Assembly (NCBI GenBank): GCA_964016885.1
Contig: OZ024743.1
Span: 60,636,001 to 60,700,000, forward strand
DNA from: Eledone cirrhosa
Taxonomy: Eukaryota
Direction of reading: 5' to 3'
DNA length: 64,000 nucleotides
Below, piece after piece: positions 5,708-41,373 of this stretch; the stretch's first letter is position 1; each line of letters starts with the position of its first letter. The notes beneath the pieces are model-generated. The model was not told where the DNA came from. It worked only from the letters and a program-made list of their open reading frames with translations, and did no database searches. The position numbers and the translations under genes were made by a program.

Positions 5708-5871
5708 TCCCAAGCTTCTGATACCATCAACATTATAAACACAGAGCTGGCATTTCTAAAGAACTGACTAACTGCCTGATGAGGTCATAGCCATTCAATG
5801 GCTATCATCGAAATATATATACCAGTAAATAAAGGATTATAAGTTCATGCAATTGACTTATGTTTCGTCAC
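5708..5871 (+). mobile_element. About 163-bp hammerhead mini-element family D, copy 1
   Basis: Same ends (tcccaag...gtcac) as 41211-41373; actgc CTGATGA..atagccat/atggctat..GAAA tatatata|ccagt; (TA)n on both sides. Confidence 0.8.
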
Positions 5872-6786
5872 TATATACATATATACATATATATATATAT
5901 ATATATATATATATATATATATATATATATATATAGGCCTGCCTCCTGTTCGTTAGAGTACACGATATTCTTTCACCACCGCCTTCCATATCTATTTATA
6001 CATTTAGTGGTTAATAATTGCTTGCTATCTTTTGAGTTAAACATCTCTCTCTCTCTCTCTCTTTCTCTCTCCCCCCTCTCTCTCGCTCTCCCCCCCTCCC
6101 TCTCTCTCTCTCTCTCTCTCTCTCTCTCTCTTCATATATATATATATATATAAATATATATAAATATATATATATATAAATAAATATATATATATATATA
6201 TATATATATATATATATATATCACACACACACACAAACACACTCTCTCTCTCCTCTCTGACACTCTCTTTCTACCTCTCTGAAACCCTATACCCTTATCT
6301 CCCTTCCCCTTTCAAAGATACACACACCCCTAACACACAGAAGGGATTATATAATATAGTATCTCCGGCGTGGGAGGGTGTTAGCATTTATACATATATA
6401 TATATATATATATATATATATATAACAGTATATATATATTTATATATATATATATATATATATATATATTTTTTTTTTTTAATATACATTCATATATATA
6501 TATATATATATATATTTTTTTTTTAATATACATTCATATATATATATATATATATATATATACATACATATATATATATATATATATATATATATATATA
6601 TATATATATATATATATATATATATATATATATATATATATACATATACATATATATATATATATACATATATATATATATATATATATATATATATATA
6701 TATATACATATATATATATATATATATTCATATATATATCTATATATACATGAATATATATATATATATATATATATATATATATA

Positions 6787-6981
6787 TAGATGAGATTCTA
6801 CAGGACTAGAACTGTTTTATTCTTTAGAAATCATCAGGAATCAAATGAAATTCCTGATGATTTCTAAAGAATGAAACAGTTCTAGTCCTGTAGAATCTCA
6901 TCTATATTAAAACTTTTATACTCTGCAATGTATTGAGTACTTTACTTACTGTGGTAACCTCCGACTCAATCCGGAATAACG
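6787..6981 (+). mobile_element. Fold-back mini-element family A
   Basis: About 55-bp inverted arms 6787-6904 plus about 75-nt tail; tail end shared with 44876-44910. Confidence 0.8.
6850..6896 (+). ncRNA. Type I hammerhead ribozyme motif
   Basis: attc CTGATGA t ttc taaa gaa t GAA acag ttctagtc ctgt A|gaat: stem I attc/gaat, stem III acag/ctgt, GUA site. Confidence 0.72.
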
Positions 6982-7974
6982 TATATATATATATATATAT
7001 ATATATATATATATATATATATATATATATATATATATATATATATACATATATATATATATACATATATATATATATATATACATATATATATATATAT
7101 ATATATATATATATATATATATACATATATATATATATATATATATATATATATATATATATATATATATATATATATATATATATATATACGTACATAT
7201 ATACATTCGACTGCACTATATGAACCTCATCAGGTGTCGCCCTAATCCACTGACAAGCAGATCAAATACAAAGCTCCATTCTAAAATACATTTGATTGTT
7301 TAACACTATACACACTTCCCACTTCCAACTACCCACCCAAACACACACACTCGTATATATGTGCGTGTGCGTGTGTGTGTCAGAGAGAGAGAGAGAGAGA
7401 GTTTGTTAGTTTGGTTTCTTTAGTTTTGTTCGTTTATAATAGTATACTTCCCAGTTTAGTCGGCATGTCTCTGTTGCACTCCGCAGTAAATGGGCGAATC
7501 GTTGCCCCTGCTGCTTCTCCATATCTGCCCCACATTGCTCCTTCCTCAGGTGGGTTGCACTCATCCTGACTTTGTGGAAGAAACGTCAGTTCAGAGTTGG
7601 TGGGCCCCAATGAGCTTTATTCAGACCGGCACAAAAGGTCTTACTTTAATTCCTGGCTATCATGAATGCCTTAATTTCATGTTCAAAGGAAATAATCTTT
7701 CTTGCCCACAATATAAATTTCGATGCCATATGCGCTTAACTCCAGAAAGATTCGTAGGAGCGCTGTTGGAACATTTAAAAACTGGCTGAATCTATTGCAC
7801 TCAAATTGGGAACACAGCCGGGAGAGTGAAAAAAGTGGTAGAAATAGTGAAAAATCGAATCCAGCATTGGGTAAAGCAGATCTTGAAAGACTGAAAAGCA
7901 AAGAAGACCGAGGCAGGATTTGAACTCAGAGCGGAGAAGGTCGGAACATGTCATGTCTACCATATAAATTGTTA

Positions 7975-8095
7975 ACTAAAAAGATGGTGTCACCATGGAT
8001 TCTCCTTTCGACCCGAGGTTTCTGATACTCTATATAGTGCCAATATAGTATATTGTGTTATATATACGTCGGATATATGGATGACAAACTCACCG
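7975..8095 (+). pseudogene. Highly decayed PLE-type reverse transcriptase fragment
   Basis: DGVTMDSPFDP (cf. GxAMGSPLxP) followed after a frameshift by YVGYMDD. Confidence 0.35.
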
Positions 8096-8398
8096 GAAAA
8101 TGCGAACAATAAACCATTATTTTTTTACCAACTGTGTTAACAATCCAGTATGATTTTGTGAAGATATTGCTATTTCTCGCAGCTTGGACACCGACGTGAA
8201 TAATAACTTGTTGCTTGCCGTTAGAGTACACAATATAGTTTCATATAGGAACTATTTATATAAATATTCAGCAGTGAATGTTTGTAGGGGGTGCCTTCAG
8301 TAATCTCTCCCCACCACTTTCTTAGTTTCTCCCACTCTCTAGGTCTCTGTCTATATCTCTATAAATCACTCTTTCTCTCTCCCTATATATATATATAG

Positions 8399-38189: not shown

Positions 38190-40120
38190 TATATATATAT
38201 ATATATATATATATATATATATATATATATGTGTGTGTGTGTGTGTGTGTGTGTGTGTGTGTATGTATGTAAGTATCTAACTATCTATCTCTGTATATAT
38301 ACATATAGATATAGATATATATACATATATATATACATACATACATACATATATTACGTGTTATTGATGCTTATAACATTTTCTTCATTGAAAGATAAAC
38401 CAAGATAAAAAAAGATAAATCATATACGCTATATTACTAACCTATAGCCCAACATGACATGCGAAGTTCAAATTACTCCACTCAGTTTTAAAGTCATTAA
38501 CGAAAGGAAAGATATTTCTGTTACACTATGTTCACCGTAGAATACATTACATAGAGTAATGCAGCAAAACAGTGAATAAGAATACTATGACGTGGATGAT
38601 AGCAATATTTCGGTGTATCAGTATCTATTGCTTAATTGGACACAGTTATAGCAATAGTCATGAATATTTCTCCACATAGAGAAACACCAATTATAGTGAG
38701 CAAACCAACGACTAAATTTATGCATTTATGTGTAGGCATTCGTATGTACAGACACACATTCCCATGCATATATATATATATGTGTGTCTTATTATTATAT
38801 ATATATATATATATATATATATATATATGTGTGTGTGTGCGTGTGTGTGTGTGTGTGTGAGAGTGTATCTATCTATCTATATATATATATATATATATAT
38901 ATATATATATATATATATATATACACATACACATACATATGAATACACATACAACACACACACACACACACACACACACATACATACACACATATATATA
39001 AATAAAGTATAAACATTTTATTCTAAACTTTCTTTAACAACGCATACTATACTGAATCTTTACTCTTAAATGGACATCTTATCATTTTGTGACACGTCAT
39101 ATATATATATGTATGTATATATATATATATATATATATACATCATATCAGCTCAAGCGACTCTGCGCAAATCACCGATTTAGTTGGAATCTATCTATTAC
39201 ATAACATCAGAGCTGAAATCCAACCCTTGCAAGGCGGAATATATAGGGACGACGCCCTATTTGCAGTCCACAATTGCACTAATCGAGACATTGACTTGCT
39301 CAAAAAACAATTACATAGATTTTTTTTTAAATAACGGTCTCTCTATCACCATCGAGCCGAACCATAAGGTAGTAAACTTCCTGGACGTTACCCTAGATCT
39401 TAACAACAACTTATATTACCCTTATCATAAACCAGGTGAAATACTTACATATATTAACCCACACTCTAACCACCCACCGGCAGTCATCAGAGCAGTCATC
39501 AAATATATCTCGTATAGGATCTCTATGGTATCCGCAAATGAGGAGATATTTATAAACCATGCGGCATATTATAATAAGGCTCTTTCTGAATCTGGTTATG
39601 AACAGTCCATTTACTACATACCTAAATGCCATAACACAGCACTTCACTGCAACCATAATAAACTTAACACTAGAACTAGAAATACTTTAGCATATAGCCA
39701 GATTCGCCGGTATTTTAGCAGTAATAGCACCTATACAGGGAACCGTACTGATGGCAGAGGCCTACCTCCCACTCCCAGTAGCAGACTCAAAATCAACCCT
39801 AGAATAGGAATGAGCAATGGGATGACAAATAACAAATGCCCAGGTAATAATAACCCTATGAAGGCCCCTGCCAACTCCACTAGAACCCCTAGAAGGAATA
39901 GGCCTAGAAATATCACCTGGCTTAACCCCCATTCTCATCTAACTTAGCGCCTAATATCCCTGAACGCTTCTTCTAGGACAGTATAACTCCCACACCGCGG
40001 TACCCCCCCCCCCCCATATACATCACGCCACTACACCAGTAATTACTCTAGTAGCATACCTCCCCATCTAATCGTTCTAGCACGCACCAACCACATAGTT
40101 TAAACAACCCTACTCTCACT

Positions 40121-40567
40121 AACCGCAGCAGTAACTGCAACTGCCGTTACCCTAATGCATGCCCACTAAACGGACAATGCCTTACACCCAATCTAGTTTA
40201 TAGGTGCACAGTTAAAACAGCATCGCATACCAGCTCCTATATTGGCTCTACCTCTAACCCTTTTAAGGTACGCTATAACGCGCACTCATTTTCCTTCCGA
40301 GACTCTAGCCATAGATGTTCGACATCTCTAGCTAGGCTCATTAAAAACCTTAAATTAACCAACATTGAACACTCACTAACATGGGATATCTTGGTTAGAG
40401 CCCACCCGTTCAATGGACGAAAAAACTCTTGTGATCTCTGTCTTACCGAAGCCTATTACATAACTCTATCACGACATCTACCGATTAATGATAGAACGGA
40501 GGTAACTATTAGCTGTCAACGTCGAAGGGCTAATTCCTTCGCCAACAGAATATTTGACCCAACGTAG
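40121..40567 (+). CDS. GIY-YIG endonuclease domain of the PLE (no ATG, absent from ORF track)
   Basis: Hand translation: CNCRYPNACPLNGQCLTPNLVYRC..SYIGSTSNPFKVRYNAHSFSF..WDIL..CDLCLTE..INDRTE..C, stop at 40565-40567. Confidence 0.85.
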   Translation, partial: NRSSNCNCRYPNACPLNGQCLTPNLVYRCTVKTASHTSSYIGSTSNPFKVRYNAHSFSFRDSSHRCSTSLARLIKNLKLTNIEHSLTWDILVRAHPFNGRKNSCDLCLTEAYYITLSRHLPINDRTEVTISCQRRRANSFANRIFDPT

Positions 40568-40929
40568 TCATCTAATTCCACTTTTTCTAATACCTAACAT
40601 GTTAAATAGTTATAGCTAACTTAGATAATTATAAGTTATATTGTCTCTCACTTAAACTCATTAGCACTTCTTAACTATAAACCACCTACAATTTCTAATT
40701 TCTCGAGGAGTTACTTCCTCTGAAACCAGTCTCTAATTAGTAAGGTAAATATGTCCTTTGGCGGCCATCTTGTTACCCATAGGCAGATCTCGCATAACGC
40801 AGCCTCGACAGAAGAATATTGCTCGGCTATGGCAGACAATAGATAGACCCAGGACACCATAGTCAAATACCAATATATGGAACATTACATTCATGTAACC
40901 ATCTTTCTTTAATTTATATTCCTTTTGAA

Positions 40930-41048
40930 GTTCCGATGAACTGCTCCAATTTTTCCTAAGTTAATTATCTTCAACTGAACCAGATCAATAATGATCTATA
41001 ATCATTTGATCCAGAAGCATTATATGGAGTAGCGAAACAATTGTAAAC
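40930..41048 (+). ncRNA. Hammerhead motif in the PLE 3' UTR
   Basis: gtt CCGATGA a ctgctcca...tggagtag c GAA ac aatt gt A|aac. Confidence 0.72.
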
Positions 41049-41210
41049 GGACATTATTAGTATTATTATTATTATTATTTACATTCCTTACATTAAAGTA
41101 CAACTATGTTGACAATCTTTAAATAATGTCTTCCTTGTGAAATTTGTGGTCTTGTTTTGATTACCTAATGAATATATATATATATATATATATATATATA
41201 TATATATATA

Positions 41211-41373
41211 TCCCAAGGCTCTGATACCATCAACACTATAAAGACAGAGCTGCCATATCTAAGAACTGACTAACTGCCTGATGAGGTTAGAGCCATTCAA
41301 TGGCTATCATCGAAATATATATAGCAGTAAATAAAGGATTATGAGTTCATGCAATTGACTTATGTTTCGTCAC
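41211..41373 (+). mobile_element. Family D hammerhead mini-element, copy 2
   Basis: actgc CTGATGA..agccat/atggct..GAAA tatata TA|gcagt (5-bp stem I, 41273-41328). Confidence 0.82.

Follow-up and report, generated by a model that had tools for sequence, protein, structure and literature searches.

Two hammerhead-bearing insertions in the window

We analyzed a 64,000-nucleotide stretch of the Eledone cirrhosa genome (GenBank assembly GCA_964016885.1, contig OZ024743.1, positions 60,636,001 to 60,700,000, forward strand), referred to here as the window, which carries two copies of a short unit with a type I hammerhead ribozyme motif. In copy A the unit occupies positions 5708-5871 (164 bases) and in copy B positions 41211-41373 (163 bases). 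Both units open with TCCCAAG and close with GTCAC, and each lies inside (TA)n; on these identical boundaries, our reading of the sequence agreed with the initial annotation. The same annotation regarded the two as copies of a defined non-autonomous unit of fixed length, possibly retrozyme-like and passing through a self-cleaved or circular RNA, and this view did not hold. The unit is almost certainly the 3' end of a coding Penelope-like element (PLE) of about 3.9 kb, and short copies of this type are an ordinary, known kind of relic.

Counting the five bases in front of TCCCAAG, copy A is a 5'-shortened insertion of the PLE 3' end at positions 5703-5871 (plus strand), made up of ATATG and the 164-base unit and terminating in GTCAC. 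Copy B, at 41206-41373 on the plus strand, arose from the same PLE 3' end by a separate 5'-shortened insertion and consists of ATATA and the 163-base unit. Most short copies, A included, retain the ATATG of the parent element (sometimes CATATG) before TCCCAAG; the true piece is about 168 bases and not 163. By sequence, the (TA)n-rich target tract 5' of copy A extends over 5400-5702, with a start that may precede 5400, and the tract 3' of it over 5872-5935. Copy B is preceded by (TA)n at 41174-41205 and followed by (TA)n at 41374-41392, after which (TG)n begins. Long (CT)n and (TG)n microsatellites (window positions 6046-6132 and 41393-41537) adjoin the two insertions in a region rich in microsatellites.

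Copies A and B are identical in 153 of 164 aligned columns and align with positions 3686-3853 of the reference copy of the element (see below) at 95.9% and 95.8%, respectively. From the family majority, A differs at 7 positions and B at 4, with no overlap between the two sets. The flanks beyond the TA runs, compared over about 3.6 kb per side, showed no similarity. Since the flanks are unrelated and A and B have no private changes in common, they are independent insertions. Besides A and B, the window contains no further piece of this PLE family or of its sister family.

The parent element and its clade

The reference copy (L044:2349-6201) is 3,853 bases long, and the unit forms its last 163 bases. 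At loci L043, L044, L045, and L052 we observed pairs of same-strand junctions about 4 kb apart, in which a truncated copy ending in GTCAC is followed by 8 bases, about 2.6 kb of new sequence, and then the common 3' region. This layout is a partial tandem, with a pseudo-long terminal repeat (pLTR). Inverted arms are present at L022, L059/L060, and L141/L142. The element has two alternative 3' ends, either GTCAC alone or GTCAC followed by an 8-base spacer and a tail that consists of the element's own first 75-81 bases, and two-armed copies carry this tail on one arm only. A discrete 1.4-kb non-coding element ending in the unit was ruled out, as the upstream sequence at L032 runs into the coding body.

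The copy at L052 has an intact open reading frame (ORF) of 847 amino acids, for which 34 homologues of about 700 residues were found (E-values of 2e-140 to 4e-71). On the N-terminal, reverse transcriptase (RT) side, the alignment A3 has the motifs RWK/RWR, ADKTxN, KDHK...RLINP, FDVTMGS, GLYRDDGL, FLD, SNHP, and WFNPPYS. Its C-terminal side contains a CNCRx5C linker, a VVY...YIG...FKxR...H...SF block, CxLCxxE, and LNxR...CxH, and the pattern VVY...YIG...R...H...E...N within it is GIY-YIG-like. Compared by hhalign with a canonical PLE ORF from this genome (L178), A3 gave a probability of 96.6% and an E-value of 6.5e-10 over 388 columns, spanning the RT and the first half of the GIY-YIG block. 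The L178 ORF itself matches Pfam RVT_1 with 28.5 bits and PF01541, in the GIY-YIG region, with 34.5 bits.

We read the clade from motifs, against the description and the supplementary alignment of named families in Craig 2021 (PMC8557442). According to that description the Hydra clade is marked by DKT in place of DKG, RWK, CxCX5C, CxxC, CxH, the lack of CCHH, and canonical hammerheads; almost all of its families are found in (TA)n, and its elements are generally shorter than 3 kb. A3 has DKT, RWK, CxCX5C, CxxC, and CxH, with no CCHH seen, and the same motifs are visible in the named Hydra sequences of the supplementary alignment (PMC8557442). The supplementary text of that paper contains neither of two 17-mers from the unit, so the element is not a listed family as far as that search reaches, and we treat it as an undescribed family of a known clade. 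The first ten GIY-YIG loci (L033-L042) lack the unit and belong to other PLE families. The genome has a very high PLE load: first-look candidates number 42,020 for the Hydra-type ORF and 10,596 for Pfam GIY-YIG, figures that are lower bounds and not copy numbers.

A sister PLE family has about 70% ORF identity to the unit's element, intact frames of 890-896 residues, and copies that are 95-99% alike (L143, L144, L145, and L146); this family is young. Its 3' end has 3,659 exact matches in the genome, most of them in head-to-head pairs 340-450 bases apart. Its insertion layout is the same as that of the unit's element: 18 of 30 loci (L147-L176) are tailed with the element's own 5' start, which in pairs typically occurs on one arm only.

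Copy number and positions of the 5' ends

A search of the 3.0-Gb genome with the unit returned 425 candidates, and all 40 that were scored matched over nearly the full length (query 1-164, 1-163, or 3-164) with 96-100% identity. The first 21-mer of the unit occurs 2,144 times as an exact match and the last 23-mer 3,140 times, while the reversed controls gave 0 in both cases; hence, the unit recurs far beyond chance. CTCAT precedes 793 of the 2,144 exact 21-mers (37%) and is absent before the other 1,351 (about 63%). Twelve of the 30 best-matching loci extend upstream into common sequence that ends in AAGCTCATATG before TCCCAAG, with upstream end points that all differ, and in the other 18, (TA)n and then TG, or ATATG, stands in the place of AAGCTCATATG.

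We then mapped the 5' ends in a sample selected blind to them, namely the first 90 exact matches of the 3'-terminal 23-mer along contig 1, with internal TA repeats masked and a view limit of 450 bases. The 5' end fell at the (C)ATATG junction (-5 to -3 relative to the unit start) in 24 copies, at 0 to +14 in 8 copies, and inside the unit (+71 to +128) in 15 copies, of which four come from a different repeat family and three form the arms of small palindromic pairs. It lay 6 to 289 bases upstream of the unit start in 18 copies and 290 or more bases upstream in 25. Taken together, 24 copies end at the junction, 23 further in, and 43 further upstream. Nearly all copies, both of these 90 and of the 30 best-matching loci, have 3' flanks that open with TA repeats.

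The fixed length proposed in the initial annotation is thus contradicted: the 5' ends are heterogeneous, with 23 of 90 copies starting further in and 43 reaching by varied amounts into the longer coding element, an outcome that the annotation itself had set as refuting its reading. The 168-base form is modal, accounting for about a quarter to a third of the copies, and length is not fixed. A second argument of the annotation, that random truncation would not give shared ends, survives. With 24 of 90 copies starting within 3 bases of one site, the ends are indeed unlike those of random truncation and probably reflect a defined RNA.

To compare short and long copies we used 29 best-scoring loci and 67 sampled by position. 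No site of the unit differed in frequency between 41 short and 55 long copies, and divergence was 2.7% and 2.6%, respectively. With the same variants and the same divergence in both, the short copies do not make up a separate lineage. The unit is the terminus of the coding PLE, and the proposal of a defined non-autonomous unit is not supported by these results.

The hammerhead motif

The hammerhead was correctly recognized in the initial annotation: the core is complete in both copies, and the motif is kept in the sister family. In copy A (5771-5826, plus strand) helix I is formed by 5771-5775 and 5822-5826, CUGAUGA lies at 5776-5782, helix II at 5783-5793 and 5799-5809, and GAAA at 5810-5813; a 2-bp helix III with an AUAU loop occupies 5813-5820, and the cut is predicted between 5821 and 5822. 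The corresponding positions in copy B (41273-41328, plus strand) are 41273-41277 and 41324-41328 for helix I, 41278-41284 for CUGAUGA, 41285-41311 for helix II, and 41312-41315 for GAAA, with a predicted cut between 41323 and 41324. In unit coordinates, helix I pairs 63-67 with 114-118, CUGAUGA is at 68-74, helix II pairs 75-85 with 91-101 and has one C-C mismatch, GAAA is at 102-105, and helix III consists of two pairs closed by a palindromic AUAU loop. All parts follow the type I order (CUGANGA, GAA, A15.1-U16.1, H17, and helices I-III), H17 being A113. The predicted cut falls between unit bases 113 and 114, which leaves the ends of the unit 113 and 50 bases away. Because the cut lies inside the unit and each copy has one ribozyme, the unit is not the product of ribozyme cutting at both ends.

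Helix mutations affect both window copies. A change of G to C at 5822 breaks the first helix I pair of copy A, and the fold of A loses helix I. Copy B has two changes in helix II, C to T at 41288 and T to G at 41290, the latter of which breaks a pair. A majority-like copy shows helices I and II in its minimum-energy fold. In the same kind of copy (L026:1558-1625), the minimum-energy fold pairs the core GAUGA with UCAUC of helix II, an alternative in which the catalytic core would be masked. The sister family has not preserved these pairs, which may be an accident or a family-specific switch.

The sister family retains the hammerhead though its 3' untranslated region (UTR) barely aligns otherwise. 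Within the core it departs only at N7, a free position; a pair in helix II has changed from U-A to C-G, and the 10.1-11.1 pair occurs as G-C, G-U, and A-U. In an alignment of 5 hammerhead sequences from the two families, 92% of the cells are paired and 2 pairs change on both sides, a weak signal, as 18 of 500 shuffles reach the score. The motif has the metazoan type I form, with a helix III of 1-2 bp and a palindromic loop; according to Cervera and de la Pena 2014 (PMC4209133), such motifs cleave poorly as single units and work as dimers. Self-cleaved or circular RNA would therefore not be expected from solo copies, given a single hammerhead with a 2-bp helix III and poor cutting as a monomer.

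A candidate RNA start at the shared 5' end

We asked why so many copies have the same 5' end. The sister family has a comparable mode: 11 of the first 30 of its 3,659 exact 3' ends start at TTCATATG, 223-226 bases from the end. In both families the preferred site is preceded by an identical 14-base block, ACTGACCAATGAGA, located about 60 to 47 bases before the A of CATATG (L044; L146 for the sister family). This block sets CCAAT at -56 to -52 and at -52 to -48 in the two families, and around it their 3' UTRs hardly align. TCATATG itself resembles an initiator, which we take to have the consensus YYANWYY.

The base in front of ATATG points in the same direction. It is G in 122 copies and A in 29; in the sister family it is G in 73 and A in 27 (first 100 of 175 matches). 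Background TA tracts, examined in the same phase in 505 kb of fetched sequence, had G 57 times and A 160 times. An additional 5' G in a retrocopy is a hallmark of copying from capped RNA.

We consider it rather probable that A and B are independent 5'-shortened PLE insertions into (TA)n whose common front end corresponds to the 5' end of a short, probably capped RNA. For the more general statement, judged from sequence, that the 5' mode of the family marks an RNA start, we see the chances as evenly balanced. A promoter in the 3'/pLTR region, with the CCAAT block about 50 bases upstream and the initiator-like TCATATG, would produce a short, probably capped RNA that starts at the conserved TCATATG site. 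Reverse transcriptase that runs to the end of this RNA would yield a piece of constant length. The GTCAC boundary would be the preferred start site of reverse transcription in this element, and a second start site about 85 bases past GTCAC would give the tail, as shown in vitro for the anole PLE. Lacking the upstream promoter, the short copies would be dead on arrival, which fits the absence of a short-copy lineage of their own.

This proposal has parallels in previous work. Craig 2021 (PMC8557442) assigns the PLE promoter and start site to the pLTR, and Frangieh 2024 (PMC11167929) proposes a promoter in the pLTR of the anole PLE. In vitro, both DNA strands are cut and extended in the anole system, reverse transcription begins at two internal sites whose spacing corresponds to the "tail", and the ribozyme is dispensable (Frangieh 2024, PMC11167929). 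By analogy, the two 3' ends and the two-armed copies tailed on one arm may be seen to fit this picture.

More tentatively, and with rather less than even confidence, we suggest a complete model. The pLTR would have a CCAAT-plus-initiator promoter, from which a capped transcript starts at the A of TCATATG; copying would start at GTCAC or about 85 bases beyond. The 168-base piece would then be the whole start-to-start RNA turned into DNA, a by-product that outnumbers full copies, and the last ~50 bases would be the minimal handle for the enzyme. We propose the latter because an unrelated ~480-base repeat has captured exactly that part.

This repeat is non-coding, flanked by (TA)n, and ends in the last ~50 bases of the PLE (L072:1042-1523, also L054, L073, and L097). 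The stretch held in common starts no more than about 6 bases from the predicted hammerhead cut (...AAATAAA, next GCAGTAAATAAAGG...GTCAC), and the repeat gave no tRNA and no Rfam match. It looks like a true non-autonomous PLE passenger and may have arisen when a template switch took place at the end of an RNA cut by the ribozyme. Two further loci, L135 and L141/L142 (G000:C1:109718255-109718344), carry very small palindromes in which two copies of the unit's last ~46 bases meet head-to-head at unit positions 117-118. The joints at these two loci only lie 3-4 bases past the predicted ribozyme cut and are a possible trace of cDNA running off a cut RNA.

A number of observations weigh against our interpretation. 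The start site is a prediction from DNA copies. Because this site, a palindrome, includes ATAT and (TA)n is the target in nearly all cases, most junctions are ambiguous by several bases and microhomology annealing must contribute. The upstream partial copies of L043, L044, L045, and L052 begin 195-334 bases upstream of the site, so long RNAs cannot all begin at TCATATG. Near a second TCATATG, which this family has about 160 bases upstream, only 2 of the 90 ends are found. Some short copies (L022, L028, L065, L066, and L075) keep the C before ATATG, and the excess of G could have a different origin, for example filler bases in two-armed joints. The identification of the element and its ribozyme also has points to its disadvantage. 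Pfam gave no RT or GIY-YIG match, PF01541 included, in the 847-amino-acid frame at E-values up to 1, and a PDB profile search with the element ORF gave 0 matches. Pfam likewise returned nothing on six ORF pieces and only chance-level matches for four homologues, and the precomputed labels PF26215 and PF28514 were neither reproduced nor named. With 3.85 kb the element exceeds the length of Hydra elements, although that criterion is loose, the paper saying "generally" less than 3 kb. Rfam did not report a hammerhead, either with gathering scores over the whole window or at E-values up to 10 in copy A and a full 3' region; at E up to 10, copy A and this region gave only TA-repeat "microRNA" look-alikes.

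Alternative explanations for the shared ends

The fixed 5' end could instead be a joining hotspot, with no special RNA end behind it. Microhomology would then steer truncation, the growing cDNA using the palindromic CATATG to pair with (TA)n or with its counterpart from the opposite arm. Most junctions do pass in phase from (TA)n to ATATG, many other 5' ends also open with AT or TA, and head-to-head arms join exactly at CATATG (L022, L148, and L159/L160). However, ATAT sites of the same or greater length that the enzyme meets earlier are barely used. Among the 90 sampled copies, 1-2 end at the (TA)4 of the hammerhead and 0 at GGCATATC, compared with 24 at (C)ATATG, and 0 of 30 sister copies start at the longer, 8-base palindrome ACATATGT. 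The same junction is also found beside flanks other than TA (L028, L104, and L116), and a hotspot leaves the excess of G and the conserved CCAAT block unexplained. We regard this explanation as unlikely, though by no means far-fetched.

The 163-168-base piece might also be a self-propagating non-autonomous element resembling a short interspersed element (SINE), with an internal promoter of its own and with short masters from which the PLE enzyme makes the copies. In its favour, no other length class is as common, CTCAT is missing before about 63% of the exact 21-mer matches (1,351 of 2,144), and the piece contains the 3' end used by the enzyme. Against such an origin, the 41 short copies have no diagnostic site that would set them apart from the 55 long ones and have diverged to the same extent (2.7% versus 2.6%), the promoter-like block lies upstream of the piece, and the 5' ends form a continuum. 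We hold it to be very improbable.

Still less credit can be given to a retrozyme, that is, a hammerhead unit that is transcribed, self-cut, circularized, and copied back into DNA, as had been suggested as a possibility. The hammerhead is present, but its predicted cut is internal, 113 and 50 bases from the unit ends, and poor cutting as a monomer has been reported for single hammerheads whose helix III has 2 bp (Cervera 2014, PMC4209133). A check for tandem arrays found no head-to-tail arrangement, with 0 of the first 100 listed 3' ends accompanied within 1 kb by another on the same strand. Copies A and B each stand alone, with 35 kb between them, and the unit is the end of a coding element. 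Finally, a segmental duplication, which the initial annotation had named as an origin of the two copies that would refute its reading and for which their likeness is the only support, is virtually precluded by the dissimilar ~3.6-kb flanks on each side, the unshared private changes, and the thousands of dispersed copies in the genome.

Comparison with known systems

The element resembles the Hydra clade as described in Craig 2021 (PMC8557442) in its single ORF with RT plus GIY-YIG at the C-terminus, the hammerhead near its 3' end, and insertion into (TA)n, and also in its frequent 5' truncation, partial tandems, inverted copies, and one-sided tail. It differs from the clade in its length of about 3.9 kb, owing to a TA/TG-rich 3' UTR of about 1.2 kb and two low-complexity inserts in the ORF. 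The hammerhead tabulated for Hydra-1_oBim in the same paper (PMC8557442) differs from that of the unit.

Dispersed PLE hammerheads, in the account of Cervera and de la Pena 2014 (PMC4209133), are likewise of type I, with a palindromic loop and a helix III of 2 bp. They occur there mostly as single copies or in opposite-strand pairs 100-700 bases apart, and are probably those of truncated PLEs, to which the authors ascribe them. Unlike these, helix II is long in the unit (11 positions with one C-C mismatch), and there is no unpaired base between 9 and 10.1. Metazoan non-LTR retrozymes (Cervera and de la Pena 2020, PMC7229834; Li et al. 2026), as far as these sources describe them, also combine a type I hammerhead with a non-coding piece and kinship to PLEs, whereas our unit has no tandem repeats, does not end at the ribozyme cut, and forms the end of an element that codes for protein.

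The anole Poseidon PLE (Frangieh 2024, PMC11167929) shares with our element the two alternative 3' ends, with or without a piece of its own 5' start, the two opposed arms that cutting and extension of both DNA strands would produce, the AT-rich targets, and a promoter proposed in the pLTR. It belongs to another clade, and its tail measures 30-40 bases compared with the 75-81 bases and 8-base spacer found here, which are known from sequence.

Overall, our analysis removes a false lead, as the hammerhead units are ordinary stubs of a known retrotransposon clade and not retrozymes or circular-RNA replicons. In two related families, thousands of stubs indicate one and the same conserved site and CCAAT block. 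They provide a concrete, testable guess as to where a Hydra-type Penelope element starts its transcription and where its enzyme starts copying, both of which are poorly known for Penelope-like elements of this class. If this is true, the dead copies map the working parts of a Hydra-type Penelope element.

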